Shown: positions 7,236 through 50,647 of the stretch, piece by piece
Position numbering within the stretch: the stretch's first letter is position 1
Layout of the letters: each line of letters begins with the position of its first letter
Assembly (NCBI GenBank): GCA_030390025.1
Contig: CM059432.1
Span: 4,464,001 to 4,528,000, forward strand
Reading direction: 5' to 3'
DNA length: 64,000 bases
From: Squalus acanthias
Lineage: Eukaryota
Notes under the pieces: model-generated
The model's input: only the letters and a program-made list of their open reading frames with translations
Told to the model about the DNA's origin: nothing
The model's database searches: none
Made by a program: the position numbers and the translations under genes

Positions 7236-7246
7236 ATAGAGTCATA

Positions 7247-8142: not shown

Positions 8143-8235
8143 ATAGAGTCATAACGGCACAGAAGGAGGCCATTCGGCCCATCGAGTCCGTGCCAGCTCA
8201 CTGTAGAGCAATCCAGTCAGTCCCATTCCCCCGCT

Positions 8236-26742: not shown

Positions 26743-27404
26743 GGTACCTGTGTTTTTGATGTTGCAGCAGCCAAATTAATCCAGATTCATTGGGGCAAGA
26801 TGAGAATGATGGGAGTTATAATGCCATAGTGTTTGTTATTTGAAATATGCGTCCTGCCAGAGAAACAAGAGGGGAGATATTCAACTGCCAGCCAGGAGTC
26901 AATGTCCTGTCCTCCCAGAACTGAGAGTGGTGAGAATGTGGAACTCGCTACCGCAGGGAGTGGTTGAGGCAAATAGTGTAGATGCATTTAAGGGGAAGCT
27001 GGATAAGCATATGAGGGAGAAGGGAATAGAAGGTTATGTTGCTGGGGTGAGACATTTTTGTTTTATTATTCGTTCACAGGATGTGGGTGTCGCTGGCAAG
27101 ACCAGCATTTATTTGAAGGGATATTTACTAGTCCTAGCCCCTTTGGGGCTATCCCGGATCAGACGCATTTCTCAGACGTTCACTTTCAACTAAAGTTTGA
27201 GGTAGCCGAATCCTAAAGATGCTTAATTGGATCTAAAGGTCTGGGCTATCTCTCCCTAAAGGAAAGGAACAACCCGAGAATGTTACCGTCCTCCAGATAG
27301 CGCTTTTAATAAGTTTAGCTAGATTGTAACGTCCCGGATATTATGAAGGTCCAGAGAACGCCTTCAGAATTATGTAACTCTTCACCAAAGAGTGTACAGA
27401 GATT

Positions 27405-28164
27405 GGGCTGGATTTTCATTGACCCGTGGAGGTGGGTTTGGAGGCGTGTGGGGGGTTAAAATTGCGAAAACTGGCGGGTGGGGGGTTAAAATTGCGAAAA
27501 CTGGCAGGAGGGCACAAGCCCGCCTCCACGCAATTTTCATTAAATCGTGTCTGCTGGTCCCGACTCCGTCCCACCTCTCAGAGGCGGGATAGGCTGTTAA
27601 GGCCCTTAACAAGCACTAAATTGGCTCTATAATGCCATTTTGAAAGGCCTTTGTGATTTTAACCCTTTTTCTATGTGAAGCACGCCTGTTCTGAACCACG
27701 AATGTGAAACCTGGTGGGAGCACATTTGGATGGAGATGGAGATGATGATGGAGGTGGAAGTGGAGGTGGAGGTGGAGGTGGAGGAGGAGGAGGAGGAGGA
27801 GGAGGAGGAATAATGATAATAATAATAATAATAATAGACATATCTGGGAGTGGTGGTGGTGGTGGTGGTGCAAAAATATCTGGGAGCAGACTTAGGGCTG
27901 CTGCTGCTCATTTTGCATCCAGGTCCTCTTACAGCAAAGGCCAGGCAGTCTTTGCAGACCTTCAATGCAGCAGCAATGATGACATCATCAGAGGTGACTT
28001 TCAGACTGAAAACACTAATTGGGTCATAGGTTCCCACATGCTGGAACTCAATTGCTCAATTAGATGAAAATCACATCAATCTCCCACATCCAATTGCAGT
28101 CGGGTGGATAACACGAAAAGTGGATGACACGACCCCAACCCGCCCCAGTATCAAAATCCAGCCC
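27405..28164. mobile_element. Harbinger-type MITE, family D
   Basis: Perfect TIR GGGCTGGATTTT...AAAATCCAGCCC; homologous to 55349-56017. Confidence 0.85.
27729..27870. repeat. Compound microsatellite (GGAGGT)n(GGA)n(AAT)n...(GGT)n
   Basis: Directly visible; the source of the spurious poly-G/H/S/I ORFs. Confidence 0.95.
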
Positions 28165-29049
28165 AGAGTTTGTGCGTTATTGATACAGAAGACTTATGTG
28201 AGACAATTCTAAAAATATATAGAGATTGATTAAAAGAACCGACATCCAATTTACAGTTGGTGAATCAGTCAATCGCAACATTAACAGTTCCAAAAACAGA
28301 AAAAATGCTATCTTATTATTAACAGGAAATCTTACTTTTAAATCTTAACTTTGCTACAGTATTACAGTTCTTAAAGTTTTCTATACAGGATATCCATCAA
28401 TATCAAATACCTTTGATCCCCAAGGTACAAAGAGTTGGAGACCACAGAGCCGCCTCTGTGGTCGAGAATCGCTTTGCCCGATTAAAGCGAGTATGCTATC
28501 TCATTTGAAACTTCAATATTTATACCCTTTTCCAGTTGTATTTCCTTTAAAGTTTCTGCTGATGCAAGTTAATTATCCCTATTCATCTTTCTGCTGACCT
28601 CTGCATTTCTTTACTGCTACATCAGCTTGTAATATTCCAGAATCTTGTCTTTCTCCAGGTTTTCTGGGTTCACCATATAAAACAGTGTGAAGGGCAGGTG
28701 TTCCTTATTTTATGTCATCTTTATGAGGGCAGATGTTCCTTATCTTATGTGCTATACGAAGTTTAAATTAAAGCACCTTATCCAGGGTGGACCATTGTTT
28801 TGTTCCCAAAAGGTCAGCCTGTCGGAGCCATGCACCCTCTGTTTCAAGAAGGTTATTTATTCAGGGTCAACAACTGTCTTATCTCAATAGCCAGAATTCT
28901 TTCATAGCTATTTCTAAATATCCAAACCCAGTTTGTCATGTTTTAATAAATATATACAGTAAAGTTCCTTATATAGTATCACATATTGCCCATCAGAAGG
29001 TGGCAGTGAGCCACTGCAGTTAGGGAGGGAGTTCCAGGATTTTGACCTG

Positions 29050-31039: not shown

Positions 31040-31453
31040 GAAAAAAGAATTTGCATCTATATAGCGCCTTTCATAACCTCAGGATGTCCCAAAGCGTTTT
31101 ACAGCCAATGAAGTACTTTTTGAAGTGTAGTCACTGTTGTAATGTAGGAAACGCGGCAACCAACAGCCAACAGCAATGTGACAATGACCAGGTAATCGGT
31201 TTTAGTGATGTTGGTTGAGGATAATATTGGCCAGGACACCGGGGATAACTCGTCTGCTCTTCTTCGAAATAGTGGCCGTGGGATTTTTTACTTCCACCTG
31301 AGAGAGCAGACGGGGCCTCAGTTTAACGTCTCATCCAAAAGACGGCACCTCCGACAGTGCAGCACTCCCTCAGCACTGCACTGGGAGTGTCAGCCTAGAT
31401 ATTGTTCTCAAATCCATGGAGTATTACTTGAGCCCACAACGTTCTGACTCAGA
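31040..31453 (-). mobile_element. Deu-domain SINE
   Basis: Reverse complement of the family consensus; its head abuts MITE 31454. Confidence 0.82.
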
Positions 31454-32346
31454 GGGGGAAAAATTCAGTCGCGACCCATTTGGGGCGCAAATATCGTCCG
31501 GGCGCAAAGATTAGCGCCTGGCGTTAATTATCGCCACTGACTGGAAACTTCACTTTTAACGCCCCGGGAGGTGATTGGAGCGCTAAATCAGGCGCTGCAC
31601 ACCTGTCTTAAGGCGCAAAGGCCGAGGAGTGAGGCGCTAACTCAGAGCGCTGGCGAAGCTCATGTAATGTCAGTCAGCAATGGAACACACACACAATGGC
31701 ACGGGCCAGTTCTTAAAGGGGATGGTTGATCTTGCTTTCCATCCACATCCTGCTCATTGCAGCCTTGAATCTCGGCCTGGAGAGACCTGCACATCAAATC
31801 TGCTGGAAAGAACAATGGAGAGTACCAGGCAAAGAGCTCAGAGTGCAGCCCCCACAGTCTCTGCTAAATCAATACAAGGAATGGAAAATCAAAATGAACC
31901 TGCAAAGTGCTGCTCAGTACCCAAAACTCCTTCACACAACGTTGAATCTCTCCAGAAGTCTCTCTCACTCTCTCTCAGAATGCGTAGTTCAAAAATGGCA
32001 ACAACAATAAAAGGCAGGAAGCGGTCACCTTTAAATAGCGCTCCCCCTTTCCCTTCATGACAGAAGAACGCTCCTATCAACCTGTCGTTGCTAGCGTCAG
32101 GCGGTAAGGCAGGGGGCGCCACTCAATATCCGCTCCGGAGCGATACAGGGGCGTTGCACACTCGTCTGACGTCACGATCTGCCGGCACAGGAGATCGTGG
32201 CGGTAGTGTTTAGCGCTGCCGCAAAATGTCTAGTTAATTTCGCGAGCGGCGCAAACTTCGCCGCGCCCGGTCGCTAGCTGCTTTGCGCCCCATTAGCGCC
32301 CTCTTAAGGCGCTAACGGGAGGCGCAACCAACTGAATTTTTCCCCC
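31454..32346 (+). mobile_element. Harbinger-type MITE, family A, copy 3
   Basis: Perfect 16-bp TIR GGGGGAAAAATTCAGT...ACTGAATTTTTCCCCC, TSD AGA. Confidence 0.92.
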
Positions 32347-32807
32347 AGACAGTCTTATTTTCACATAAATAATTGACTAATTTATGATTGGAATGGAGTA
32401 TACCAGAACTCACTCCACGTGAGACTGCTGAATGAAGTAACTTGCTGTAACACACCGGCAATTTACTGGAGTCATTGCAAAACTCCTGCCAAAAAAACAC
32501 CTCTCCTACGTCCCGAGTGGGAAAACAATCTTTCAAGGACAAACAATGTTTTTCTACGCCATGTATTTTCTAAGATTATACTCTGCAACCCTTTGGAAAC
32601 TGACTGTTAATTTACATCATTCAAGCAGATGCTGCCGGGATTATTTCAATCAATTCATACAATGCTACAGTGCAGAAACATCTGGCCCTCCAACTGAGTG
32701 AGATTAAGAAAGAAAGAAAGAAAGAAAGAGAGACTTGCATTTATACAGCACCTTTCACAACCTCAGGACGTCCCGAAACGCTTTACAGCCGGTGAAATAC
32801 TATTTAA

Positions 32808-33152
32808 ACAAAAGCAAAATACTGCGGATGCGGGAAATTTGAAATAGAAATAGAAAATGCTGTAAATACTCAGCAGGTCAGGCTGCATCTGTGGAGAGAG
32901 AAACAGAGTTAACGTTTCAGGTCAATGACCCTTCGTCAGAACTGGATAAAGTTGGAGATGGAACAGGTTTTTAAGCAAGTGTAGGGGCAGGGAAAGCGGG
33001 GAGGGGAGGAAAGAACAAAAGGGAAGGTCTGTGATAGGGTGGAAGGCCGGAGAGATTAAGAGACAAAAGGGATGATGGTGGTGAGGCAAAAGGAGATGGT
33101 AATGGGACAAGTTAAGAAACAAAAGATGGCAGGATGATCAACAGCTGCCAAG
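32808..33152 (-). mobile_element. Penelope-like element 3' fragment (family P1)
   Basis: Flanked by a 10-bp TSD TACTATTTAA; carries a hammerhead motif; homologous to 47010-47227 and 33440-33585. Confidence 0.75.
32907..32943 (-). ncRNA. Minimal type-I hammerhead ribozyme motif
   Basis: Minus strand reads AGUU CUGACGA A GGGUC AUU GACCU GAAA CG U U AACU: stem I, core, stem II, GAAA, palindromic ACGU stem III, UH cleavage site. Confidence 0.8.
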
Positions 33153-33256
33153 TACTATTTAATGTGTTGTCACTGTTCTAATGTAGGAAACACGGCAGCC
33201 AATTTGCACACAGCAAGCTCCCACAAACAGCAATGTGATAAATGACCAGATAATCT

Positions 33257-33585
33257 CCACGGATGTTGCCTGGCCTGCTGAGTGTTTCCAGTGTTTTCTG
33301 TTGTTATTTCAGATTTCCAGCATCCGCAGTATTTTGCTGTTGTATCAGTGTTTGGTTCGCTGCCAACTCTCTTCTAGGAATGCCCACCTTGAAGAATTTC
33401 TGCTCTTCTCTCTGACGGGATTTCCGTTTGTCTCTTCAACCTTGTTTTCCAGTTCTGATGAAGGGTCCCAGACCTGAAACGTTAACTCTGTTTCTCTCAC
33501 CACGGATGCTGCCCGACCTGCTGAGTGCTTCCAGCATTCTCTGTTGTTATTTCAGATTTCCAGCATCCGCAGTATTTTGCTATTG
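33257..33585 (+). mobile_element. Mini Penelope-like / retrozyme-like element with a terminal direct repeat
   Basis: TSD TAATCT; 33257-33342 is repeated at 33500-33585 (period 243 nt); hammerhead at 33451-33487. Confidence 0.75.
33451..33487 (+). ncRNA. Minimal type-I hammerhead ribozyme motif
   Basis: AGUU CUGAUGA A GGGUC CCA GACCU GAAA CG U U AACU; predicted cleavage after 33483. Confidence 0.8.
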
Positions 33586-34269
33586 TAATCTGTTTAAGCT
33601 GTTGGTTGAAAGATAAATATTGGCCAGGACACCAGGGAGAACTTCCCTGCTCTTCTTCAAATAGTGACTCGAAATCTTTTAGATCCACCTGAGAGAGCAG
33701 ACAGGGCCTAGGTTTAACATCTACATCTGAATGACAGCACCTCCGACAGTACAGCCCCAGAGTGTCAGCCTAGCTTTTTGTGCTCAAGTCTCTGGAGTGG
33801 AACTATGCAACCCACAACCTTCTGATTCAAAGGCGAGAGTGCTGCCCACTGAGCCATGGCTGACAATACATCTGTTGCGCTAACGCTACCCTTGTAAGCT
33901 TACTTGTGGTGTCATGAGGAGGCAGCACAGTGTTGGGACAACCGTAAGCAATTCCAGAATTAACCAGACATGCAACGTATTTCTGAATATCACTGTCAAT
34001 CAAACAAACTGACTTAATTCATGTTCCTGGCCAATAATGTACAGTGCAATCGATATTATGATAACATATGCTATGAATTATTCTGTAATTCGCTGTAGTA
34101 AGATTTTTTAAAAAGGCTGTCAATAATATAGGCCCTCTGCCACCTTAAGGACCTAAAACAACAACAACTTGTATTTCTATAGCGCCGTTAGCGCAGTAAA
34201 ACGTCCCAAGGCGCTGCACAGGAGCGATTATCGAACAAAATTTGACACCGAGACACATAAGGAGATATT

Positions 34270-35922
34270 GGGCCGTAATTTGCGGCCCCTACAGGGTGCG
34301 TACGAGGTGTGTACGCGGCCGTAGGGGCCGCGCAAGTTCTGGGTTTAGGCGTGCGAAGCGCATGCGTGGAAATCCAGAACGTGCGACCGGTCAAGAAGAT
34401 CACCCGCATCCCCAGGAGACGGGCCTCCGCGGGCGGGGAGTTGTGCTATTTGCCCAACCTCCGCCCGCTGAATGTCCGTGAAACTCTTACGCCGGGTAAA
34501 AGTAAACGTAGGGCCTGCTTTTACCAGGGTAAGAGTTTTAAAAAATAGAAAAACAAAATGTTATCACTCATTTATACTTTAAAAACCCAGTCCAATAAGG
34601 TAAGTTTATTTTTAGCCCTATTAGAATATATATGGGGGAAAAATTCAGTCGCGCCCCGTTTGGGGCGCAAATATCGTCCGGGCGCAAAAATTAGCGCCTG
34701 GCGCTAATTATCGCCACTGACTGGAAACTTCACTTTTAACGCCCCGGGAGGTGAGTGGAGCGCTAAATCAGGCGCTGCACACCTGTCTTAAGGCGCAAAG
34801 GCCGAGGAGTGAGGCGCTAACTCAGAGCGCGGGCGAAGCTCATGTAATGTCAGTCAGCAATGGAACACACACACAATGGCACGGGCCAGTTCTTAAAGGG
34901 GATGGTTAATCTTGCTTTCCATCCACATCCTGCTCATTGCAGCCTTGAATCTCGGCCTGGAGAGACTTGCACATCAAATGTGCTGGAAAGAACAATGGAG
35001 AGTACCAGGCAAAGAGCTCAGAGTGCAGCCCCCACAGTCTCTGCTAAATCAATACAAGGAATGGAAAATCAAAATGAACCTGCAAAGTGCTGCTCAGTAC
35101 CCAAAACTCCTTCACACAACGTTGAATCTCTCCAGAAGTCTCTCCCTCTCTCTCTCAGAATGCGTAGTTCAAAAATGGCACCAACAATAAAAGGCAGGAA
35201 GCGGTCACCTTTAAATAGCGCTCCCCCTTTCCCTTCATGACTGCAGAACGCTCCCCTCAACCTGTCGTTGCTAGCGTCAGGCGGTAACACAAGGGGCGCC
35301 ACTCAATATCCGCTCTGGGGCGATACCGGGGCGTTGCACACTCGAGTGACGTCATGATCTGCCGGCGCAGGAGATCGTGGCGGTATTGTTTAGCACCGCC
35401 GCAAAATGTCTAGTTAATTTCGCGAGCGGCGCAAACTTCGCCGCGCCCGGGCGCTAGATGCTTTGCGCCCCATTAGCGCCCTCTTAAGGCGCTAACGGGA
35501 GGCGCAACCAACTGAATTTTTCCCCCATACTTTTTTTTCAAAAAATTACATTTTTGTTTAAAATATTTAATTAAATGGCATTTTAATTAATTTTAAATAT
35601 GTAATTTTTTTAACTTATTTTATGTGTTCGTGTATTATTTAAGTGATCTCCATTCATGCTTATGACAGTTCTGTACATACGGAATCCACATAAGTATGAA
35701 TGCGGATTCCCTTCTGTCATTGGTTGGGCCAGCCCACATGATCCCAGGGGAGCTCACGAACCGCCTGCACCCCTGGGGTATGTGGGCCTCGACCTGCAGG
35801 TACCCGGAGAGGCCCAGGAGCGCGAGTCTACGAACCTCCCGGACCACCAGGTAAATTCGTAGATTTGTTGCAGGTTGGAGGCCTCCGCCCGCGGGAAGCC
35901 TCCGACCGCAAATGGTTGGGCC
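34270..35922. mobile_element. Harbinger-type MITE (family C-related) hosting family A copy 4
   Basis: Imperfect TIR GGGCCGTAATTTGCGG...CCGCAAATGGTTGGGCC; TSD ATT/AAT; GC-rich ends around an AT-rich core. Confidence 0.78.
34634..35526 (+). mobile_element. Harbinger-type MITE, family A, copy 4
   Basis: Perfect 16-bp TIR GGGGGAAAAATTCAGT...ACTGAATTTTTCCCCC; nearly identical to 31454-32346. Confidence 0.92.
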
Positions 35923-37264
35923 AATAGGACAGGTGACCAAAAGCTTGGTCAAAGAGGTAGGTTTTAAGGAGCGTCTTAAAGGAGGAAAGAGAGGTAGCGA
36001 GGCGGAGAGTTTTAGGGAGGGAATTCAAGAGCTTAGGGCCCGAGGCAGCTGAAGGCATGGCCGCCAATAGTGGAGCGATGGAAACCGGGGAAGCGCAAGA
36101 GGCCAGATTTGGAGGAGCGCAGAGATCTCGGAGGGCTGTAGGGCTGGAAGAGGTTCCAGAGATAGGGAGGGGGCGAGGCTATGGAGGGATCTGAACACAA
36201 GGATGAGAATGTTAAAATTGAGGCGTTGCCAGACCGGGAGCCAATGTAGGTCAGCGAGCACAGTGGGTGATGGGTGAACGGGACTTGGTACGAGTTAGGA
36301 CACGGGGGCAGCCAAGCTTTGGATGAGCACGAGTTTACAGAGGGTGGAAGGTGGGAGGCCGGCCAGGAGTGTGTTGGAATAATGGAGTCTGGAGGTAACA
36401 AAGGCACGGATGAGGGTTTCAGCAGCGGATGGGCTGAGACAGGGGAGGAGAGGGGCGACAAAATCAAATAACAACCTTCATCTTGTGTTGCATCTCATTC
36501 CAATAAAGCAGAAATGTGGCCCTGCAACAGCAAGAAAGGTCATTTCAAAGAAACTTCACAACCTGAAGCAGCTCATACACAATAATGAATCCAGCTCAGA
36601 GAATTTAAGGCAGCAATCAAACTTCAGGGACTCATGCCACACACATCAATCAGGAGCACAAAGCTCAAGTGATTTTTGACGTCACTGCAAGCTCTCAGCT
36701 GGACTATTGCACTGTAATTCACTGGAAAGCAGCTATTATCCTCTAGACGTAAGTAGATAGATTGAATCCTTGTAATTTTATTGGTTGAGAGAGCAAACAT
36801 TAACACATGGACAGATTCTATCTGGCAACGCTCCTAATCGCCATTCCAGCGCAATTTATGTTGAAATGAGGAAAAACAAAATTCAGGAAGCCCCTTAATT
36901 CTAAATATAATTATGCACAGCTTTCCGACTGCCGTTGATATATATTCCCCAGTTAGGAATTAACTTTCCGTCGCACAGACACAGTTGCTGAGGTGAGTTT
37001 TCAGGTTGGTCCAGAGCGTCTGGTTCTTAATCTTGAAGAGCGTTTGCAAACCCGGAGAGCTGTGTACGAACCTCTCTCTAGGTTCTCGTGATTGGGCTGT
37101 ACGGGCCGTGACAAAAATGAAGCGCGTTCGTCCGTGCTAGTTTATCGACTGGTTTATTTACTCTTGGCCACAGAGCACTGGGTTCTGTTGGTTATTTCTG
37201 CAAAGTACCGGAATACAGATTTCAGCCACTGCGGTTGCATGGACACTGGGATCAGTACCCTGAC

Positions 37265-37487
37265 AAGAATGCTACATAGAATGTACAGCACAGAAACTGG
37301 TCCGTGCCGGTGTTTCTGCTCCACACGAGCCTCCTCCCACCCCTCTTCATCTCACCCTATCACCCTGTCCTTCTATTCCTTTCTCCCTCATGTGTTTATC
37401 GAGCTTCCCCTTAAATGCATCTATACTGTTCGCCTCAACCACTCCCTGTGGTAGCGAGTTCCACATTCTCACCATTCTCTGGGTAAC
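37265..37487 (-). mobile_element. CR1 3' end
   Basis: Same family as 19335-19640. Confidence 0.8.
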
Positions 37488-37739
37488 ACTTGGAGTTAAT
37501 TGCATCGCAATGCCTTGGTTTTAAAAAAATAACTACCATTGTACATTACAATGGCCTTATTTTACAGCTAACTATGCCACAGGGTTAGCTTGAACACATG
37601 TTGTTTACCTCATTATAAGGGTACACTTGCTCTGTACTGACAAAAATAGGAAATATTAGTGCCTTACTCTTACTAATACTAATACTGCACAATGCATTAT
37701 TGGGAACTCATAACATACTGCTGTTGGCTTAGATGAGCC

Positions 37740-38150
37740 AATGAAAGAAAAAAGAACGAAAGACTTGCATTTCTACAGCACCTTTCACGACCACCGGACG
37801 TCCCAACACACTTTACAGCCAATGAAGTACTTTTTGAAGCGTAGTCACTGTTGTAATGCAGGAAGCGCAGCAGCCAATTTGCGCACAGCAAGCTCCCACA
37901 AACAGCAATGTGATAATGAGCAGATAATCTGTTTTAGTGCTGTTGATTGAGGGATAAATATTGGCCCCAGGACACCGGGGATAACTCCCCTGCTCCTCTT
38001 CAAAATAGTGGCCGTGGGAGCTTGTACCTCCACCTGAGAGTGCAGACGGGGCCTCGGTTTAACGTCTCATCCGAAAGACGGCACCTCCGACAGTGCGGCG
38101 CTCCCTCAGCACTGCACTGGGAGTGTCAGCCTAGATTTTTGTACTCAAAT
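37740..38150 (-). mobile_element. Deu-domain SINE
   Basis: Reverse complement of the core and tail. Confidence 0.85.
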
Positions 38151-38624
38151 CATTAAGAATGCAGCAAGAGTGGATCACTCTCAGCCTAGAGTGTGAGAAA
38201 GGGCGTTGGATGGATCCTTGACGGTTCAACTCCTTGTCAAGGAACCAATAAGGTTCACGAGCCAGCTCGGTGATTTTAACCCTGCCCGGTGGTCAGTTGA
38301 TATTGCCCAGGCTACTTAGCCGCCCTGGAGCTGCTGGGACCTGATGGTTTCCCCATTTTAAACTGCTCAACTGAACAGGGGGGCAAGCACACTCGCCCAA
38401 AACTCGGTGAGGTCCTTTTCTACATGTGGATGACAGCTTCTGATGATGTCATCGGGACCCGACTGCAATTTTAACTCACCGGCCTGAAGGGGAAGACACA
38501 GCGGCCCTCCAATTCTGGCCTCTTGCGCATCCCCGATTTTCATCATTCGACCATTGGCGGCCGTGCCTTCAGCTGCCTGGGCCCTAAGCTCTGGAATTCC
38601 CTCCCCTAAACCTCTCCCCCTCTC

Positions 38625-38966
38625 TTATAAGAACATAAGAACATAAGAAATAGGAGCAGGAGTCAGCCATACGGCCCCTCGAGCCTGCTCCGCCATTCAG
38701 TGAAATCATGGCTGATCTTCGACCTCGACTCCACTTTCCCGCCCCATCTCCGTATCCCTTGATTCCCCTAGAGTCCAAAAATCTATCGATCTCTCCTTGA
38801 ATATACTCAATGATTCAGCATCTACAACCCTCTGGGGTAGAGAATTCCAAAGATTCACCACCCTCTGAGTGAAGAAATTCCTCCTCATCTCAGTCTTAAA
38901 TGGCCGACCCCTTATCCTGAGACTATGCCCCCTAGTTCCAGACTCTCCAGCCAGGGAAACAACCTG
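38625..38966 (-). mobile_element. CR1 3' end with (CTTATGTT)n tail
   Basis: MRRNFFTQRVVNLWNSLPQR; a short L2 fragment precedes it at ~38510-38625. Confidence 0.88.
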
Positions 38967-39301
38967 TTAAAATGTTTAAATGTTAAACTAATTTCACTTT
39001 TTACATCTACTACTTACCCAATACTTACCAGAAATTCCCACTCTTTCCAAATTCCCAAATAAAATACTCTGTTTAAGAACACTCCGTTTTAATCCCACTC
39101 TGTGCTCTGCAGACCTGCTTACTCTTAAACATTTTTACTCTAGGAGCCTCACCCAATTTACAAGTGTTGACTCAGCTCCCCTGCTCCTGGTGATTAGCGT
39201 CTATTCAAGACAAACACTTACAGCTGATTGACAGTTAACTACCACTGGCAGGCAGCTTCTGTTAACTACAGTTTTTAACAGTTTTTTAACTACAGTTGAC
39301 T

Positions 39302-39338
39302 TTACCTGACGAAGGAGCAGCGCTCCGAAAGCTCGTGA
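39302..39338 (+). ncRNA. Minimal type-I hammerhead ribozyme motif in a ~95-bp Penelope-like fragment (family P2, ~39291-39385)
   Basis: UUAC CUGACGA A GGAGC AGC GCUCC GAAA GC U C GUGA; palindromic AGCU stem III; predicted cleavage after 39334; followed by AATAAA and ctgttggactataacctggtgttgtg. Confidence 0.8.
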
Positions 39339-39557
39339 TTTCAAATAAAACTGTTGGACTATAACCTGGTGTTGTGTGACTTCTCACAGTTTTTAAAGTT
39401 CGAGGTTGAAATCAAAATGTTAAACTAAATTTCACTTTTTACATCTATTACTTACCCAATACTTACCAGAAATTCCCACTCTTTCCAAATTATCAGATAA
39501 AACACTCTGTTTAAGTACACTCGATTTTAATCCTGCTCTGTGCAGACCGCTCTGTGC

Positions 39558-42500
39558 AAGAAAAGCAGTGGTCCTAGAACCAACCCCTGGGGAGCACCGC
39601 TGTGTACCTTCCTCCAGTCTGAAAAACAACTGTTCACCACTAACTCTCGGTTTCCTGTCACTTAGCCAATTCTGTATCCATGCTGCCACTGTCACTTTAA
39701 ATTCCATGGGCTTCAGCTTTGCTGGCAAGCCTATTATGTGGCACTTCATCAAATGCCTTTTGGAAGTCCATGTACATCACATCAACTGCATGGCCCTCAT
39801 CAACCTTCTCTGTTACCTCATCAAAAAACTCAATCAAGTTAGTTAAACATGATTTGCCTTTAACAAATCCATGCTGGCTTTCCTTAATTAATCCACACTT
39901 GTCCAAGTGACTGTTAATTTTGTCTCGGCTTATCGTTTCTAAAAGTTTCCCCACTACCGAGATTAAACTGACTAGTCGCTGGATTTATCTTTACACCCTT
40001 TTTTAAACACGGGTGTAACATTTGCAATTCTCCAGTCCTCTGCCACCACCCCCGTATCTAAGCAGGATTGGAAGATTATGGCCAGTACCTCCGCGATTTC
40101 CACCTTTACTTCACTCAGCGTCCTAGGATGCATCCCATCTGGTCCTGGTCACTTATCTACTTTAAGTACAGCCAGCCTTTCTAATACCCACCCAGTATCT
40201 CAACTACCTCCTCTTTCACTATGACTTTGGCAGCATCTTCTTCATTGGTAAAGACAGATGCAAAGTACTCATTTAGTACCTCAGCCATACCCTCTGCCTC
40301 CATGCATAGGTCTCCATATTGGTCCCTAATCAGCCCCACCCCTCCTCTTACTACTCATTTACTATTTATATGCCTATAGAAGACTTTTGGATTCCCTTTT
40401 ATGTTAGCAGCCATTCTATTCTCATACCCTCTCTTTGTCCCTCTTATTCTCTTTTTCACTTCCCCTCTGAACTTTTTATATTCAGCCTGATTCTCACTTG
40501 TATTCTCAACCTGACATCTGTCATACACGCTCTTTTTCTGCTTCATCATATTCCCTATCTCTTTTGTCATCTAGGGAGCTCTGACTTTGGTTGCCCTACC
40601 TTTCCCCCTCGTGGGAATGTACCTCGACTGTTCCCGAACCATCTCCGCTTTAAAGGCAGCCTATTGTTTGAATTACGGTTTTGCCTGCCAATCTTTGGGG
40701 CAATTTTGCAAGCCCTGGGGAGGCGGGTATGGAGGCGGGACTGCCGGGAAAATGGCAGAATTTGGGGGCGGGTGTCCATCCCACCCCCAACCCACCTCCA
40801 TGCCATCTTCCCAGGAGGCGGGTAGCTGTCCCGCGTTGGGTCCCATCTCCTTGGAGGCGGGATGGGATTAAAGCCTATTAACTGCCTGTTAACAGGTACT
40901 TAACAGGCAGAAAATAGGATTATCCCCTTTTTGCCCTCAAGTGCGGGCTTCCCGAAGGCTCCAAAACACGCCAGGTCAGCGAGGCGAGTACTGGGTCTGC
41001 GGGGGTTGGGGGGGTGCAAAAGTGTGCTGTGGAGGTAAGTGATGGGTGCAAGAGTGTAGAGGTGAGTATCTGAGGTAAGTGCAAAGTGTTATTAAAAGTG
41101 TACTTACCTTTGTTTCTCCCTGCAGGCTTCAGTCGGTGTGTTTGCGGAGAGTCTCGGACCTCCGTGTTGCAGATGACAGATGGCCGTTGCATTCTTAGAT
41201 GCAACAACCATCTAATTTCTGCTAAAGAAAGAGGTTTGATGAGTCTTGAATTCAAGACCTCATCAAACTACAGAGAATGTCAGTGTTTGACAGCTTCACA
41301 GAGCTGTCAAACGATGACAATTCATCTGTCAAAAATTTTTGACAGATGAAACGTCATACGTTGACGTTCTCTGCAACCGGCTTTCCCTTAATTGGCCTGC
41401 TGAGCCCGCTAGGCGGGCTTAACAAGGTCAATCAAGGGAAAATAGCGTGGGTTGGCCACAAAATCGAAGGAGGCGGAACTAAAACCCGACAAGCAGCAGT
41501 CCCGCCTCCAACGTGCCCCCATTAACAAAATCGCCCCCTTTGATTCCAATTTACCCGGGCCAGATCCATTCTCAACCCACTGAAATTGGCCTTCCTCCAA
41601 TTAAGTATTTTTACTCTAGATTGCTCCCTGTCCTTTTCCATAGCTAATCTAAACCTTATGATACTATGATCACTGTTCCCTAAATGTTCACCTACTGACA
41701 CTTGCTCCACTTGACCTACCTCATTCCCCAGAACCAGATCCAGCAATGCCTCCTCCCTCGTTGGGCTGGAAACGTACTGATCAAGAAAGTTCTCCTGAAC
41801 TCACTTCAGAAATTCTCCCCCCTCTCTGTCCATTACACTATTACTATCCCAGTCTATATTAGGAGAGTTGAAGTCTCCCATTATCACTACTCTATAGTTC
41901 TTGCACCTCTCTGTAATTTCCCTGCAAATTTGCTCCTCTATATCCTTCCCACTAGTTGGTGGCCTATAGAATACACCTAGCAATGTAATGGGACCTCTAT
42001 TGATTCTTAACTCTAACCAAATAGATTCAGTTCTTGACCCCTCCAGGACATCCTCTCTCTCCAGCACTGTAACATTCTCCTGAATCAATACTGCCACCCC
42101 ACCTCCTTTCTTTCCTTCCCTATCATTCCTGAACACCTTATAACCAGGAATATTTAAAACCCACTCCTGCCCTTTTTTGAGCCAGGTCTCCATTATCGCC
42201 ACGACATTATATTCCCTTGTGGCTATTTGCGCCTGCAGCTCACCAACCTTATTTACCACGCTTCGTGCATTTACACACATGCACTGTAAACCTGTCTTAG
42301 ACATTCTTGTATTCTCTCTTAGTCTGACCCCACCTAATATTTTCTATTTCTTACTCTACTGCTATCTGCCTCTCCCAATCCTTTGTGCACCTTGTTTCTC
42401 CTTTCTAATGCCACATCCTGGTGCCCATCCCCCTGCCAAATTAGTTTTAACCCTCCCCAACAGCAATAGCAAAAACCCCCGCGAGGACATTGGTCCCAGC

Positions 42501-43030
42501 TCTGTTGAGGTGCAACCAGTCCGGCCTGTACAGATCCCACCTCCCCCAGAACCGGTCCCAATGTCCCAGGAATCTAAAGCCCGCCCTCCTGCACCATCTC
42601 TTCAGCCACGCATTCATCTGTTCTATCCTCCTATTCCTGTACTCACTAGCATGTGGCACCAGGAGTAATCCAGAGATTACTACTTTTAAGTTCCTGCTTT
42701 TTAATCTCTTTCCTAGCTCCCCATAGTCTGCCTGCAGGACCTCATCCCTCTTTCTGCCTATGTCATTGGTACCGATATAGACCACAACCTCTGGCTATTC
42801 GCCCTCCCCCCTCAGAGTGTCCTGCAGCCGCTCAGTGACATCCTTGACCCTGGCACCAGGGAGGCAACATACCATCCAGGAATCACGTCTGCGGCTGCAG
42901 AAACACCTGTCTGTTCCCCTAACTATCGAATCTCCTATCACTGTTGCTTTCCCAATCTTCCTCCTCCCCTCCTGTACAACTGAGCCACCCATGGGGCCAT
43001 GGACTTGGCTCTGGCTGCACTCACCAGAGG
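39558..43030 (-). mobile_element. Large internal CR1 fragment (ORF1 esterase, endonuclease, N-terminal RT) with a MITE at 40697-41538
   Basis: VIGDSIVRGTD, YIGTNDIG, DWLHLNRAG, CVNARSV, ETWL, GDFN, QHGFVKGKSCLTNLIEFF, YMDFQKAFD. Confidence 0.93.
40697..41538. mobile_element. Harbinger-type MITE (related to 3918-4763)
   Basis: TIR GGGGCAATTTTG...CAAAATCGCCCCC, exact TSD TTT; CR1 is continuous across it. Confidence 0.88.
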
Positions 43031-43074
43031 AACCATCGTCCTCACCAGGCTTCCCGACACGCTTCCAATTATTC

Positions 43075-43928
43075 CCATAGAAACATAGAAACATAGAAGA
43101 TAGGAGCAGGAGTAGGCCATTCGGCCTCTCGAGCCTGTTCCGCCATTTAATGAGATCATGGCTGATCATCCAAATTCAGTACCCTGTCCCTGCCTTCTCC
43201 CCATATCCCTTGATCCCTTTAGCCTTAAGAAATATATCCAACTCCTTCTTGAATATATTTAATGAATTGGCCTCAACTGCCTTGTGTGGTAGAGAATTCC
43301 ACAGGTTCACCACTCTCTGGGTGAAGAAATTCCTCCTCATCTCAGTCCTAAATGGCTTACCCCTTATCCTTAGACTGTGACCCCTGGTTCTGGACTCCCC
43401 CGCCATCGGGAACATCCTTCCTGCATCTAGTCTGTCTCGTCCTGTTAGAATTTTATAAGTTTCAATGAGATCCCCTCTCATTCTTCTAAACTCTAGCAAA
43501 TATAAGCCTAATCAACCCAATCTCTCCTCATACGTCATTCCTGCCATCCCAGGTTTCAGTCTGGTGAATCTTCGCTGCACTCTCTCCATGGCAAGAACAT
43601 CCTTCCTCAGATAAGGTGACCAAAACTGCACACAATACTCAAGGTGTGGTCTCACCAAGGCCCTGTACAACTGCAGCAAGACATCCTTGCTCCTGTACTC
43701 GAATCCTCTCGCTATGAAGGCCAACATACCATTTGCCTTCTTAACCGCCTGCTGCACCTGCATGCTTACCTTCAGCGACTGGTGCACAAGGACACCCAGG
43801 TCTCGTTGCACTTCCCCTTTTCCCAATCTATTGCCGTTCAGATAATAATCTGTCTTCCTGCTTTTGCCACCGAAGTGGATAACCTCGTATTTATCCACAT
43901 GATACTGCATTTGCCATGCATCTGCCCA
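43075..43928 (-). mobile_element. CR1 3' end with (CTATGTTT)n tail
   Basis: ORFs 43512-43910 and 43176-43499; near-identical to 53000-53850. Confidence 0.92.
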
Positions 43929-44064
43929 TTTAATCCCCCATCTGCGCCCACTCTCACCCGCTCACTTATGTTAAAATTACCCCCTTTCTTTCAGATTGGA
44001 GAAGGTAGAATTTTAGAACAAATTTTAGAATGGCATAAAAAGGCCATTCAGCCCATCAAGCCTT

Positions 44065-44535
44065 TATGAGGATGTTGCCTGGGCTGGAGAATTTTAGCTA
44101 TGAGGAAGGGTTGAATAGGCTGGGTTGTTTTCTTTGGAACAGAGGAGACTGAGGGGAGATTTAATTGAGGTGGATAAAATTATGAGGGGCCTAAATAGAG
44201 TGGATAGGAAGGACCTATTTCCCTTAGCAGAGAGGTCAATAACCAGGGGGCAGAGATTTAAAGTAATTGGTAGAAGGATTAGAGGAGATTTGAGGAGAAC
44301 TTTCTTCACCCAGAGGGTGGTGGGGGTCTGGAACTCACTGCCTGAAAGGGTGGTAGAGGCAGAAACCCTCACCACATTTAAAAAGTACTTGGATATGCAC
44401 TTGAAGTGCTGTAACCTACAGGACCACGGACCAAGAGCTGGAAAGTGGGATTAGGCTGGATAGCTCTTTGTCGGCTGGCACAGACACGATGGGCTGAATG
44501 GCCTCCTTCTGTGCCGTAAATTTCAATGATTCTCT
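44065..44535 (+). mobile_element. CR1 3' end
   Basis: FSLEQRRLRGDLIEV...FFTQRVVGVWNSLP. Confidence 0.9.
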
Positions 44536-45294
44536 GAAGCCACGACACCCAATGAGTTGTGGGATTTTCCAGCGCTGGCCCTTTCCTGGCACAAAGTATT
44601 TGCAAAATATATGATTGTAATTATTTATTTTTTATTCATTCACAGGATGTGGGCACCGTTGGCAAGGCCAGAATTTATTGCCCATCCCTAATTGCCCTTA
44701 AGAAGATGGTGGTGAGCAGTTAAAGGATAGTAGTGAACCAGATGGGTTTTTACAACAACCCAGCCATTTCATAGTCACCATTACTGATCCAGATTTATTT
44801 AATAACTGAATTCAAATGCCCCAGCTGCCAGTGGTGGGATTTGAACTCACGTCTATACCGCATCAGTAGGCCAGGACCTAGAGGATTACTCGTTCAGTAA
44901 CATACCCACTATGCTACCCTACCCCTATGCTGATGTCAGGAAGCACTTCTTCTTCACACAAAGGGTAGTGAAAACTTGGAACTCTCTCCCCCCCCAAAAA
45001 AAGCTGCCGAGGCTGGGGGGTGGGGGGTCAATTGAAAATTTCAAAACTGAGATTGATAGATTTTTGTTCGGCATTATAAATCAGAAAAGAAAACATAGAA
45101 TTTAAATTCTAAAGGAAAATAATGGTACCACAGCATCAGTCATCACAAAATAAGCATAACCCTGCATGACTGGAAATGCAAATTTACTTTTAGAATAAAT
45201 ATAGACACAGTTCGCTGGGGCCAGATAACTATCTGAATGCCTTGAATGCCTGGGAATATGGCACAAAGGTGGAGTTAGCTACACTACTCAGACA

Positions 45295-45760
45295 AAGCAA
45301 AGAAAAGACTCCCATTTCTTCAGCGATTTAATGACCTCAGGTCGTCCCAAAGCACTTTACAAACAATGAAGTACTTTTTGAAGTGTTGTCACTGTTGTAA
45401 TGTAGGAAACACGGCAGCCAATTTGCGCACAGCAAGCTCCCACAAACAGCAATGTGATAACGACCAGATAATCTGTGGGGTTTTTTTTAGTGATGTTTGT
45501 TGAAGGACAGTGATGTTGGCCCAGGACGCCGGGGATAACTCCCCTGCTCTTCTTCGAAATAGCGGCCATGGGATCTTTTACGTCCACCTGAGAGGGCAGC
45601 GGGGGCCTCGGTTTAACATCTCCTCCGAAAGACGGCACCTCCGACCGTGCGGCGCTCCCTCAGCACCGCACTGGGAGTGTCAGCCGAGATTTTTGTGCTC
45701 AAGTCCCTGGAGCGGGACTTGAACCCACGACTTCCTGATTCAGAGGCGAGCGTTGTAACC
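45295..45760 (-). mobile_element. Deu-domain SINE, full length
   Basis: Reverse complement of the family consensus, including the head. Confidence 0.85.
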
Positions 45761-46108
45761 CATAATCTTCTGAATTTATGTTCTATTGTTTTTGAATTTA
45801 CAATTTTATTCATACTTTCTCTGGTGAAGTCAGACTAAAAACTACAAGCATAAACAAAATTAGATCGTAACATAAAATATAGAAGACCTGAAGTTGTTTA
45901 GTACATCTTTATAGTCTTGGTTGCATTATTTCTATTTAAAGAAGTTTATTATTATGTTGCCACTTTGTTCCTTTTACTTTGAATTATCTCCTGGTTCTTC
46001 TCAATGCACCCTCTGTATCTACACTAATGTTCCATGGACCATCTGTGTGTCTTAATAAAATTAGAAGTCGCACAACACCAGGTTATAGTCCAACAGATTT
46101 ATTTAATT

Positions 46109-46147
46109 TTACAAGCTTTCGAAGCAGTTCGCTCCTTCGTCAGGTAA
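46109..46147 (-). ncRNA. Minimal type-I hammerhead ribozyme motif in a Penelope-like fragment (family P2, ~46062-46150)
   Basis: Minus strand reads UUAC CUGACGA A GGAGC GAACU GCUUC GAAA GC U U GUAA; downstream aataaatctgttggactataacctggtgttgtg matches the 39302 copy. Confidence 0.8.
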
Positions 46148-46394
46148 GTTAGCAATGAGAGAATCTCCCAGAATTCACAATTTAAACCCAGACAAAATCT
46201 ATTCACATTATTCCCTACAACAAAGAGCACAGCCAAGACAATGAGATGTGTCCCAGGGGGTCCAACGTGTCAAACCACCTGCTGGCTGCATATCCTGTCA
46301 ATTTGTGTTCTTGTGTTAGACTTTTTTTAAAAAAAACACCTGGGAAGACCGGCCATGATGTCAAGTCACGTTCTGTATTAATAAAATTATGCAG

Positions 46395-46845
46395 GATCAT
46401 AGCAGCAGGAGGAGGCCATTCTGCCCCTCGAGCCTGTTCCACCATTCCATGAGATCATGGTTGATCTGTATCTCAATTCCATTTACCCGTCTTGGTTCCA
46501 TAACCCTTAATACCCTTGCCTAACAAAAATCTACCAATCTCAGTTTTGAAATTTTCAATTGACCCCCCCCAGCCTCAACAGCTTTTTGGGGGAGAGAGTT
46601 CCAGATTTCCACCACCCTTTGTGTGAAGAAGTGCTTCCTGACATCACCCCTGAATGGCCTGGCTCTAATTTTAAGGTTACGCCCCCCTTGTTCTGGACTC
46701 TCCATCTACCCTATCAACTCCTTTTAATCATCTTCAACACCTCAATCAGATCACCCCTTAATCTTCTATATTCAAGGGAATACAAGCTTAGTCAATGCAA
46801 CCTGTCCTGATAATTTAACCCGTTTAGCCCCGGTATCATTCTGGT
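46395..46845 (-). mobile_element. CR1 3' end
   Basis: RKHFFTQRVVEIWNSLPQKAVEA. Confidence 0.85.
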
Positions 46846-47227
46846 GTGTGCCTGCTTTGCAAATTCTGATCATTTTACGTTGTTTTGTGATTTATTTTTT
46901 AATTTACTTAATTTTAACTTCCAATTTCATTGTACTGTCCTGATAAATGCTCCAATATTTATGAAATTAGTGGTGCATATTTTAGCTACCATAAGTCGCA
47001 TCAAGCACCTACATTTGCTTCTTAACTTGTCCCATTACCATCTCCTTTCACCTGGCACCATCATCCCTTTTGTCTCTTAATCACTCCTGCCTTCCATCCT
47101 ATCACAGACCTTCCCTTTTGTTCTTTCCTCCCCTCCCCCCTCTCTCCCTGCCCCTACACCTGCTTAAAAACCTGTTCCATCTCCAACTTTTTCCAGTTCT
47201 GACGAAGGGACACAGACCTGAAACATT

Positions 47228-48083
47228 GGGGGCGATTTTGCCGGCGCTCAGGGGTCGGGTTTGGAGGCGGGACTTCTGGCAAAATCAAAAAGGTTGGCAG
47301 CGGGTCCCGAACCCGCTTCCAACCCGCCTCCAATCAATCTTCTCGGGAGTCGGGTCCCGGATTTGCACAGGGACCCGACTCCTAGCGGCGGGAAGAAGAT
47401 TATAGCCACTTAACTGCCTGTTAACAGGTAGTTAAGAGGCTTTTTCCAATTTTGACACTTGTACTGCGGGCTTCCTGATGTCGGGAAACCCCGTCAGGGT
47501 AAGTGTGGCGTGCTGTGGGTCTACTGTAATGTTTGTGTATAGATGACAGCTGCAGAAGTGGTGTGAAGGATCCAATGGGACACTGGTGAGTTGCAGAGGT
47601 AAGAAAATGTTGGGAAAGTCATTTTTAATGTGTTTAGAATTTACTGTACGTGACAAGCTTTGAAGTGTTTGTGTAGTCCCACCTCATTGGGAGAACCTCA
47701 CTCACCAGTGACAGATCACTTCTGTAACCTCTGCCATCTGTTTTAGCCTAAGGAGAGAGTCACTGGAGAGCCTGGATGCAAGGGCTCACCTTTATACAGT
47801 GATTGTCAGTGTTTGCAGCACCCCAATGCTGTCAAACACTGAAAAAATCTTGTCAAAAAGAAATGGTGGTGACCCTTTACGAAAAGCGGCAGATGATGCG
47901 TCATCAACTGGCGTCATCTGACACCGGCTTTCTCTTAATTGGCTGGCAAGCCTGCAGGGCGGGCTTAACAAGGCCAATTGACGCAAAATAGCGTCTGTGC
48001 GTCGGACGTCGCTGGGGGCGGGACTAGAACCCGAAAGGCAGCAGTCCCACCCCCAGCATGCCTCTTCAGGTAAGATCCTGGCC
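47228..48083. mobile_element. Harbinger-type MITE, deletion derivative of the Myb-encoding element
   Basis: TSD ATT; degenerate TIR GGGGGCGATTTTGCC...GGTAAGATCCTGGCC; internal gtcagtgtttgcagcaccccaatgctgtcaaacactga is shared with 15940-15980 and 63720-63765. Confidence 0.82.
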
Positions 48084-48090
48084 ATTGACT

Positions 48091-49580
48091 TGAAGGGATA
48101 ATTACAAGTCCTAGCCCTTTCGGACTACCCCAGATCAGGCGTATTCCCCAGACGTTCACCTTCAACTAAAGTTAGAGATAGCCGAATTCTATAAGACGCT
48201 TAATTGGGTCTAAAGGTCAGACTATCTCTCCCTAAAGGAAAGAAATGGTCTGAAAATGTTACCGTCCTCCGGATAGTACTTTTAATAAGTTTAACTAGAC
48301 TGTTAACCTTCCGGATATTATGAGGGTCCGGAATACCCCCCCCCGAATTCTGCAACTCCTCTCTGAAGAGTGTACAGAAATTGAGTTCGCGAGTTTATAC
48401 AGAAATACCCTATGAGACAATTCTAAAAATATATAGATTTATTAATGAACCGACATTTAGTTAACATCTGTTATGGCAATCGCAACTTTAACCGTTCAAA
48501 ATACAAATAGCTTACATTTCTTATCAGGGATCCTTATTCTCAAATCTTAACTTCGTTACATTTCCACACTTCTACTTATTTCTTCATCCAGAATATCCAC
48601 CAAAATCAAATACCTTGATTACCCGAGACTCAGAGTTGTAAACTTACAGAGCGTGCCTGTGAAGTTGAGAAATGCTTGCCTTCCCAGCGACTTCTGACTT
48701 TCCAGCTGAAAAGCTCTTATTTTTATTTATTTTTTTGGTGATTTATCCTTTGAAGTTTTCCTGCTGATGTAAGCTAATTGTCTCAAGTCATTCTTTGCTG
48801 ACTTTCTTCTATTCTTTATTGTCATTTCAGCTGTTAGCTTTTAGACTTGTCTCCTGTTTAGGTGTTTAATAAACCATCATAAAAAACAATATGACAGTAG
48901 TATTTATTTGATGTGATTCTTAGGAAGTCTTTCTGTTGAATTTCTAATATTACTTAACTACTTGTAAGCCAGACGTCGTGTCTCCTAACTATTCCATTTT
49001 CAATACAAACACAATGTAATTGCTTGGTGTCATCTCTTGATATTATATTTTCAAAGCCTTTCTGTAGGTATATTTTACAACTTGTAAACTGAAAACACTT
49101 CTCTTAGGGTGTTTACTTGCTTTCTTTCTATCTCAATTGGTTGCATATTTAATCGTGTTTCCTGTTTCTAAGTTTAACATAAAACTATTTTACGACAGGT
49201 ATTTCTTTTACTTGATGTCATTTTTTCAAAGGCACTTGTTTTTTTTAATGTTCTGTGCACCTGTTCGACGTGTTAGATTATAACACTTCACTTGGGTCAC
49301 CTCCTATTGTCTTGTTCCAAACTCTAGACATTCTGGAAGCGCCAATGGTTTGCTTCAATAGGGGCCTTGTCTCTGTATTTACAAACCAATTCCCATTTCA
49401 AAGCTTGTTTTCACAGCTTTGTGTTAACAAACCAGCTTATCTCAGAAGCCTGTATTTCTGTTTTACGGCCTGTGTCGCTGAGGCTTTCAGATTTTTAACC
49501 CCAGTTTGTCATGTTTTAATAATATCAAAAATCTGTTTATAGGATGTTGTATTTTTCTGAAATATGGCTATTCCTTCACA
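48091..49580 (-). mobile_element. Solo LTR (1490 bp), family 2
   Basis: TGAAGG...CCTTCACA termini, exact TSD GACT; minus-strand AATAAA at ~48438-48443; homologous to 27114-28983. Confidence 0.85.
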
Positions 49581-49959
49581 GACTCTGTTTCTCTCTCCAC
49601 AGATGCTGCCCGGCCTGCTGAGTGTTTCCAGCATTTCCTGTTTTTGTTACATTGAAAGCAGACTGTTTCCGAGACACACGCTCACTATTTTGATTTGGGC
49701 AATTGTGGAGGGAATTGCCAGGAACGTCATTTTCATCAAAGCTAATCAGGATGCGACTTTAAATAAGCAGCACTGGCATTTAGAAATGATGTACGTATTG
49801 ATTTTGTTTTAATAACATGTTTTGCGATATTTAATAGTATTTAAACAAACATCAGTGTGATCGACATTCAGCTTTAAGCTAATCAATGAAAGAGAATCTT
49901 CTTTAATAATTGCGGCTAGATTTCCTAACTGTGAAACATCTTGTAACATCTTTGTTACG

Positions 49960-50420
49960 TTGTGGCTCAGTGAGTAGCAGCCTCACCTGCTGAGTCAGAA
50001 GGTTGTGGGTTCATAGTCCCACTCCATGTGACTTGAGTACAAAAGTCTCGGCCGACACTCCCGGTGCAGTGCTGAGGGAGTGCCGCACTGTCGGAGGTGC
50101 TGTTTTTCAGATGAGATGTTAAACCGAGGCCCCGTCTGCTCTCTCAGGTGGACGTAAAAGATCCCGCGGCACTATTTTGAAGAAGAGCAGTGGAGTTATC
50201 CCCAGAGTCCTGGGGCTAATATTTATCCCTCAATCAACATCACTAAAAAAACGGATTATCTGGTCATTTTCACATTGCTGTCTGTGGGAGCTTGCTGTGC
50301 GCAAATTGGCTGCCACGTTTCCTACATTACCACAGTGACCACACTTCAAAAAGTACTTCATTGGCTGTAAAGTGCTTTGGGACGTCCTGTGGTCGTGAAA
50401 GGCGCTATAGAAATGCAATG
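49960..50420 (+). mobile_element. Deu-domain SINE, full length
   Basis: Head, core and tail are all present. Confidence 0.85.
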
Positions 50421-50647
50421 CCTTTGTTCTTGTGTCATACGGCGATGAGAGATATTTGTGATTTCAAGTCCCGTAACTGCTCAAAGGAGTTCGTAATAGG
50501 TCGAAAATTCACAGGCTTCTGACAAACCAATTAGCTGGTACATCACAATAGCACTGAAGTCTTTCAAAGCTGTCAGATTGGTGGGGTCTACAATTGATTT
50601 GAAACAAGATAGTGAGGAAAATGAGGGAGGAATCTTCTCCAACCTGG

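Follow-up and report, generated by a model that had tools for sequence, protein, structure and literature searches.

Minimal hammerhead ribozyme motifs left by two Penelope-like families in the genome of Squalus acanthias

A stretch of 64,000 nucleotides from Squalus acanthias (GenBank assembly GCA_030390025.1, contig CM059432.1, positions 4,464,001 to 4,528,000 of the forward strand; the whole of this stretch is called the window, and coordinates are given within it) contains five real minimal hammerhead ribozyme sequences, four intact and one broken, that were left by two abundant families of Penelope-like retroelements, which I will refer to as F1 and F2. With a probability of roughly 0.8, the motifs are type-I hammerheads within insertions of 5'-truncated terminal repeats (pLTRs), their fold was selected in the source elements, and the lone copies in the window are likely inert passengers. 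An earlier note on this DNA, made from the letters alone, had placed five such motifs in the window and assigned them to two Penelope-like families. Re-reading the sequence gave the same coordinates and strands, the same stems and palindromes (ACGU and AGCU) and the same extra A after the CUGANGA core, and the predicted cuts again fall after 33483 and 39334. The assignment to type-I minimal hammerheads of two Penelope-like families also held, since each family could be tied to full-length elements that encode reverse transcriptase and GIY-YIG domains and carry the motif in the pLTR.

Hammerhead motifs in the window

The five motifs are as follows.

32907..32943, minus strand: intact F1 minimal hammerhead; stem I AGUU/AACU, stem II GGGUC/GACCU, palindrome ACGU; predicted cut between 32911 and 32910
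33451..33487, plus strand: intact F1 minimal hammerhead; predicted cut after 33483
39302..39338, plus strand: intact F2 minimal hammerhead; stem I UUAC/GUGA, stem II GGAGC/GCUCC, palindrome AGCU; predicted cut after 39334; this type recurs in other copies
46109..46147, minus strand: intact F2 minimal hammerhead; stem I UUAC/GUAA, stem II GGAGC/GCUUC; predicted cut between 46113 and 46112
47195..47227, plus strand: broken F1 motif; A.A mismatch in stem II, palindrome ACAU, ending at the N-U-H triplet

All five share the core CUGANGA ... GAAA ... N-U-H. The four intact copies have a palindrome (ACGU or AGCU) at positions 15.2-16.2 in place of a monomeric helix III, and in the fifth this palindrome has decayed to ACAU. 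A strict descriptor (a 4-bp stem I, CUGAnGA plus 1 nt, a 5-bp stem II, GAAA, a self-complementary NN and U-H) finds the four intact motifs in the window and nothing in 300 order-3 Markov windows of equal composition. A scan of the window against Rfam at E<=5 gave nine hits, with no hammerhead family among them. By Rfam match and monomeric helix III, then, these are not canonical type-I hammerheads. Folded as monomers they do no better than shuffled sequences (z between -1.47 and +0.62), as expected of motifs that lack a monomeric helix III, and for both intact F1 motifs the minimum free energy structure is a different fold, a long hairpin in which stem I is absent. When local context is included, stem I is predicted to form only in the copy at 39302 (P~0.87), with P<=0.08 in the other three intact copies and P of 0.06 to 0.31 in intact source elements.

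Every motif in the window sits inside a 5'-truncated pLTR fragment of an F1 or F2 element. These fragments, together with two insertions that interrupt one of them, are listed below, with signed pLTR positions numbered from C3 of the hammerhead.

32808..33123, minus strand: F1 pLTR fragment, 5'-truncated, in a SINE-like (short interspersed element-like) repeat; 80-84% identity to the pLTR of loci L252/L254; extent set by the match to 47014-47227 and 33445-33586
33257..33585, plus strand: F1 partial-tandem insertion; pLTR +42..+234 joined to -10..+134
39296..39386, plus strand: F2 pLTR fragment, ~91 bp; 96% identity to the pLTR of locus L066
46057..46378, minus strand: F2 pLTR fragment of another subfamily, ~320 bp
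47014..47227, plus strand: left part of an F1 pLTR fragment, bearing the broken motif
47228..48083, no strand assigned: DNA-transposon-like insert, 856 bp, GGGGGCGATTTT ... GATCCTGGCC, with ends of the GGG...ATTTT type
48091..49580, no strand assigned: second insert; termini TG...CA; flanking duplication of 4 bp, GACT (48087-48090 and 49581-49584)
49581..49651, plus strand: remainder of the split F1 pLTR (+30..+99)

The first two entries are separate F1 insertions that lie ~100 bp apart in opposite orientation within one SINE-like repeat. They are 87% alike, and are therefore independent events rather than a dimer. The second of them is flanked by a 6-bp duplication, TAATCT (33251-33256 and 33586-33591), and its first part (+42..+234) extends ~65 nt into the start of the open reading frame (ORF). 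The F2 fragment at 39296..39386 starts ~10 nt upstream of the core and ends at a short tail; it was inserted into another repeat with a ~10-bp duplication, ACAGTTTTTA, and the empty site is seen in 27 other copies of that repeat. No body of a Penelope ORF was found within the window by ORF listing and tblastn; the traces of one are the first ~30 F1 codons at 33380-33445 and 16 codons at 39339-39386.

The fifth motif was rightly called broken, but it has not merely decayed: two nested insertions split its pLTR, which resumes at 48084-48090 and 49581-49651. The first insertion has duplicated the cleavage triplet, 3 bp reading ATT, which now stands on either side of it (47225-47227 and 48084-48086); the second insertion, which may be LTR-like (resembling a long terminal repeat element), begins 4 nt past that duplication. 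The idea that this copy records an RNA end cut by the ribozyme was rejected, since the pLTR continues beyond the two inserts. Throughout the genome, the junction of the transposon-like insert with the F1 cleavage triplet has 918 matches (7 of the first 100 being double counts), as against 49 summed over 21 downstream positions. The F1 cleavage triplet is a genome-wide hot spot for this GGG...ATTTT-ended element.

Source elements of the two families

F2 is represented by many open frames of 921 codons in head-to-tail arrays with a spacing of 3,142 bp and one motif per unit. In the array at locus L246 adjacent units are 100% identical and the motif lies 126 nt before the start codon in each; in the tandem units of L246 and L248 the motif belongs to the pLTR of an element with reverse transcriptase and GIY-YIG domains. 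The F2 protein matches RVT_1 (E=2.9e-8) and, in its C-terminal part, GIY-YIG (E=1.9e-4). For F1, the element at L252 has the motif in both pLTRs (1982 and 5181), which surround a frame of 916 amino acids, with 168 nt between motif and start codon. Its protein matches RVT_1 (E=1.2e-5) and GIY-YIG (E=7.6e-4), and the motif was present in 14 of the 15 long-ORF loci of F1 that were fetched.

The proteins of the two families are 32% identical. Both contain DKG, YIDD and a CX4CxxC linker before the C-terminal GIY-YIG domain (CHGKLCKTC in F2 and CTRRRCNTC in F1, which fit CX2-5CxxC). Such a linker is common to the Neptune and Nematis clades (PMC8557442), and so by linker sequence both families appear to be of the Neptune/Nematis type. 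Neptune-clade elements (Craig et al. 2021, PMC8557442) resemble those considered here in having a single ORF, a reverse transcriptase with DKG, the CX4CxxC linker and, at the C terminus, a GIY-YIG domain with internal cysteines, as well as partial tandems, inverted 5'-truncated copies and tails.

Three loci, L246, L248 and L249 (G000:C2:175562000-175571900, C225 and C26), hold a very young F2 subfamily whose 3,142-bp tandem units are identical and keep their frames intact. On C225 as many as five units stand in a row, and loop II is lengthened to 9 nt in this subfamily.

Cervera and De la Peña (2014, PMC4209133) described minimal hammerheads in the pLTRs of Penelope-like elements from metazoans. 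The published motifs agree with those in the window in the core CUGANGA with an extra nucleotide, the short helix I, the 5-bp helix II, the palindromic 15.2-16.2 and N-U-H, and also in their setting, being present in both pLTRs and found mostly as single dispersed copies that stem from truncated elements, with several families per genome. The extra A that the earlier note remarked on was overstated and is no peculiarity: Fig. S3 and the Discussion of PMC4209133 include it in the consensus, CUGANGAH-G.... No cartilaginous fish was found in the text of Table S1 and Fig. S3 of that paper that was consulted. A Poseidon element of Anolis carolinensis, PAc (Frangieh et al. 2024, PMC11167929), likewise has a hammerhead in the pLTR near the start of the ORF and discrete tail ends; however, its ORF starts inside the ribozyme, whereas the start codons here lie 126 to 168 nt downstream of C3, and unlike PAc both proteins here carry the CX4CxxC linker.

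Non-LTR retrozymes (PMC7229834; bioRxiv 10.64898/2026.07.22.740005) also have type-I hammerheads and a very high copy number and are related to pLTRs, but they consist of short tandem units with a hammerhead in each, whereas each copy in the window is a pLTR fragment, solo or partial-tandem, that bears a single motif. The sole direct repeat in the window (33254-33344 and 33497-33587) has a single motif, its first unit starting at +42, and the candidate retrozyme dimer at 33254-33587 was rejected for that reason. A survey of retrozymes and Penelope-like elements across vertebrates includes one chondrichthyan (bioRxiv 10.64898/2026.07.22.740005, a preprint). No description of a Penelope-like hammerhead from a shark was found in a literature search that left most subscription journals, Repbase and Dfam outside its scope.

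Abundance in the genome

The earlier note had taken the genome to carry dispersed hammerhead motifs, and it does so in great number. A general core pattern has 100,803 matches in 3.71 Gb, compared to 59 for the control; the former is a lower bound, since the pattern misses an F1 variant with A at 10.1, although a few double counts may be included. Ninety-nine of the first 100 matches listed look by eye like F1 or F2. Exact family patterns gave 33,401 matches for F2 and 15,456 for F1, with none for the reversed controls, and exact markers downstream of the motif gave 99,980 and 45,699, respectively. At this density 1.7 core matches are expected per 64 kb (P(>=4)=0.10), and the four in the window are therefore ordinary relative to the genomic background.

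Published counts for minimal hammerheads in Penelope-like elements are ~4,000 in the coelacanth and ~9,000 in Xenopus (PMC4209133), as against ~100,000 here by exact pattern, the descriptors and assemblies being different. In the axolotl, 126,247 canonical hammerhead motifs are reported in retrozymes (PMC7229834).

Covariation, core conservation and decay

Individual copies were sampled on contig C1: the first 100 marker matches of F2 and, of the 100 listed for F1, the first 79. Although the marker is not part of the motif, requiring an exact match to it favors young copies, and five of the F1 places fall into two groups that share flanks. An intact motif is kept in 71 of the 100 F2 copies and 22 of the 79 F1 copies. 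The nucleotide after CUGANGA is A in all 51 parsed F1 copies and in 76 of 77 F2 copies, the exception being a shifted parse.

Among the 77 F2 copies with a whole motif, nine of 11 core columns are invariant, the exceptions being U4C in five copies and G8A in one, while N7 takes all four letters, loop II varies from 2 to 9 nt and H17 is U or C. The helices vary with pairing maintained: a stem I pair switches among C-G, U-A and U.G and a stem II pair between C-G and U-A. Pair counts were made in F2 only, since a joint alignment put helix II of F1 one column off. The set consisted of 19 F2 types, 18 of them recurrent plus that of the copy at 46109 (a type shared with two of the 77 sampled copies). 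Pairing is found in 97.7% of cells, as against 25-50% in slid controls; the stem I pair is CG in 10 types, UA in eight and UG in one; and double changes occur in two of nine pairs, a score reached by none of 500 shuffles. The covariation among F2 subfamilies is real if modest, with changes that maintain pairing and spare the core. The sequences are related, so that the test counts as support rather than as a probability.

F1 copies show no excess conservation of the core, which the earlier note had named as a test: non-consensus bases number 23 of 561 in the core and 36 of 612 in the flank (P=0.18; 51 of 55 copies parsed, the four unparsed left out), so that the core loses bases at the rate of the flank. 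The pattern as a whole fits selection in the source elements followed by neutral decay after insertion.

Several observations weigh against selection of the fold in the sources and inertness of the copies. The covariation is modest, with two double-change pairs, one of them in a single type only, in sequences that are related. F1 closes stem II with G.U (33 of 51 copies) or A-U (18 of 51) rather than with the usual G-C of the published type (PMC4209133); F2 has the closure G10.1-C11.1 in 19 of 19 types, and G.U closures of helix II appear also in the published list, in S. mansoni 1 and cichlids (PMC4209133). One F2 subfamily (five of 77 copies) has U4C within the catalytic core. The GIY-YIG Pfam scores of both families and the reverse transcriptase score of F1 lie below the gathering cut-offs. 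Finally, the copy at 39302 is at least pre-folded, in that its stem I is predicted to form in local context.

The U4C subfamily (L123:2258-2299, minus strand, and four further sampled copies) has a compensatory U-A pair in stem II and has spread despite the change in its core.

Ends of the inserted copies

Few inserted copies begin at the cut site. The 5' end falls within 3 nt of the predicted site in two of 100 F2 copies and three of 79 F1 copies, with no excess (P=0.72 and 0.63), and most inserted copies therefore derive from RNA that was uncut at the motif. An excess exists just upstream of the core instead. It was first noticed 5-12 nt upstream of C3; the test, made with the marker sample, used a bin somewhat wider than this, from 0 to -15. 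Within that bin end 23 of 83 F2 copies at risk, compared to eight of 60 in the next 35 nt (binomial P=4e-6), and 15 of 57 F1 copies, compared to one of 42 (P=4e-4). Divided by type of junction, the pile-up is significant in F2 inverted junctions (P=8e-6) and in F1 ordinary ones (P=2e-4), and not in other F2 (P=0.13) or inverted F1 junctions (P=0.12). In F2, 29 of 39 arms of inverted junctions end in the core or in the zone just upstream, the two arms of a pair not being independent. Of the head-to-head pairs, 28 of 30 in F2 and six of six in F1 combine a long tail with a short one, as predicted by two start sites for reverse transcription. No earlier description of the 5'-end pattern was found in a narrow search of the literature.

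The pile-up could be explained by the start of the transcript, by a stop of reverse transcriptase at the fold or by microhomology at the junction. On a further reading, which I consider unlikely, the hammerhead fold in both of these distant families would not cut the template but determine where reverse transcription stops or where the two cDNA arms are joined. Tens of thousands of 5' junctions in the genome would then record uncut RNA, clustered at the 5' edge of the ribozyme.

It is distinctly unlikely that the fold persists chiefly for a structural role and not as a cutter, marking the end of reverse transcription or the join of two cDNAs and yielding head-to-head inverted insertions. Such a role would account for 5' ends that pile up in both families within the 16 nt at and upstream of C3 and for the inverted-junction arms of F2, and it would agree with the finding that catalytic mutants of the Anolis element had no effect on insertion in vitro (PMC11167929, where reverse transcription is also found to start internally). 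However, the unpaired catalytic bases are conserved across families with proteins as distant as these, which argues for catalysis; the pile-up could equally mark the 5' end of the RNA, at a promoter in the pLTR, or microhomology and palindromes at the junctions, which have been described at inverted junctions, with self-priming proposed (PMC3846280); and the excess, apart from the dependence between arms, holds in two of four junction groups.

Two further features of the junction region may be recorded. In addition to 3' ends at ~+96 and ~+132, a third one recurs in F1 at ~+234, which lies ~65 nt into the ORF (window 33254-33446; L002, L004, L008, L013, L017, L026), this end being enriched by the search query that was used. 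A pyrimidine tract followed by CAG, which resembles a 3' splice site, has its end within the 5' arm of stem I in F1 (window 33440-33454, and F1 pLTRs generally); no spliced copies were seen among those considered. In the Penelope element of D. virilis an intron ends at helix I (PMC4209133). An intron ending at F1 stem I was unsupported, since the copies that end at -2 to -5 share no upstream sequence.

Do the copies cut host RNA?

The earlier note suggested that the motifs could cut host pre-mRNA if transcribed. To do so, dispersed copies would have to act as monomers helped by host chaperones or as dimers formed in trans between RNA molecules, which I judge very unlikely. There is material for it: 71 of 100 sampled F2 copies and 22 of 79 F1 copies retain an intact motif, partners in trans would be plentiful, two palindromes being common to ~100,000 motifs, and the help of a protein can switch such a motif on (PMC11167929). 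Against this, a monomer of the S. mansoni minimal hammerhead had no detectable cleavage and dimers cleaved little (PMC4209133), and the ribozyme of the Anolis Poseidon element required that element's protein for cleavage, with no RNA-seq reads reported to end at the site (PMC11167929). Moreover, the plus strand of the window has one intact F1 and one intact F2 motif (in addition to the broken F1 motif) and the minus strand one of each. Since ACGU and AGCU cannot pair between families and no intact pair of one family shares a strand, no dimer can form in cis within the window. Same-strand neighbors within 3.5 kb are also rare in the sample (six among 100 F2 copies and none among 79 F1 copies), the F1 core is not conserved after insertion, and stem I is predicted to be unformed in three of the four intact copies. 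That part of the earlier note is thus weakly supported.

Repeats cover 78% of the window. No host exon was evident in or beside it, in 53 unique segments from the window and 10 kb on either side, a weak test, under which the window may still be intronic. Contigs of uncertain type from four public sequencing runs, aligned to positions 31500-50500 of the window and to an F1 element, gave neither molecule ends nor a GT..AG joint among the alignments displayed, a result that bears neither way on expression or cleavage. Elsewhere, at L068:2263-3087 (minus strand), an open frame of 275 amino acids, TPR-like in appearance, is found ~700 bp away from an F2 insertion and may be a host exon or part of another element.

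That the motifs are chance look-alikes, or non-functional sequence hitch-hiking in a repeat, is extremely unlikely: the failure of Rfam and of monomer folding would suit this idea, but the simulated windows and the genome-wide control, the compensatory changes, the same position in two distant families and the match to the published consensus speak against it, and a chance origin is refuted.

A life cycle consistent with the preferred explanation, selection in the sources and inert copies, may be outlined. The ribozyme fold would likely be selected in active source elements, where cleavage would need either a dimer or the help of the protein that the element encodes. Read-through transcripts of the head-to-tail F2 units would carry several motifs with matching palindromes. 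Reverse transcription probably begins downstream of the motif, at sites in the tail that are fixed, may mostly read through an uncut motif, and may often stop or switch template just past it, a process that would scatter the ~100,000 motif-bearing fragments.

Other repeats in the window

The 1.5-kb insert at 48091-49580 has partial relatives at 27106-27405 and 28199-28627. An element of ~1.8 kb at 6345-8153 consists of inverted halves of ~900 bp, and single halves recur at 31445-32357 and 34631-35529 (89-96% alike).

Significance

The class of motif, its extra nucleotide and its link to Penelope-like elements have been known since 2014, and as a discovery the present finding is modest. Its value lies in the material: ~100,000 motifs, among the highest of the published counts compared, and an intact family with identical tandem units. 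If lone copies cut host RNA, such a load would matter for gene expression, but the present evidence is against it. The role of hammerheads in Penelope-like elements has been called unclear (PMC8557442), and junction statistics together with an active element could serve here to test it. If the fold does set the end of reverse transcription, that role would be readable from junction statistics and testable with the intact and very young element.

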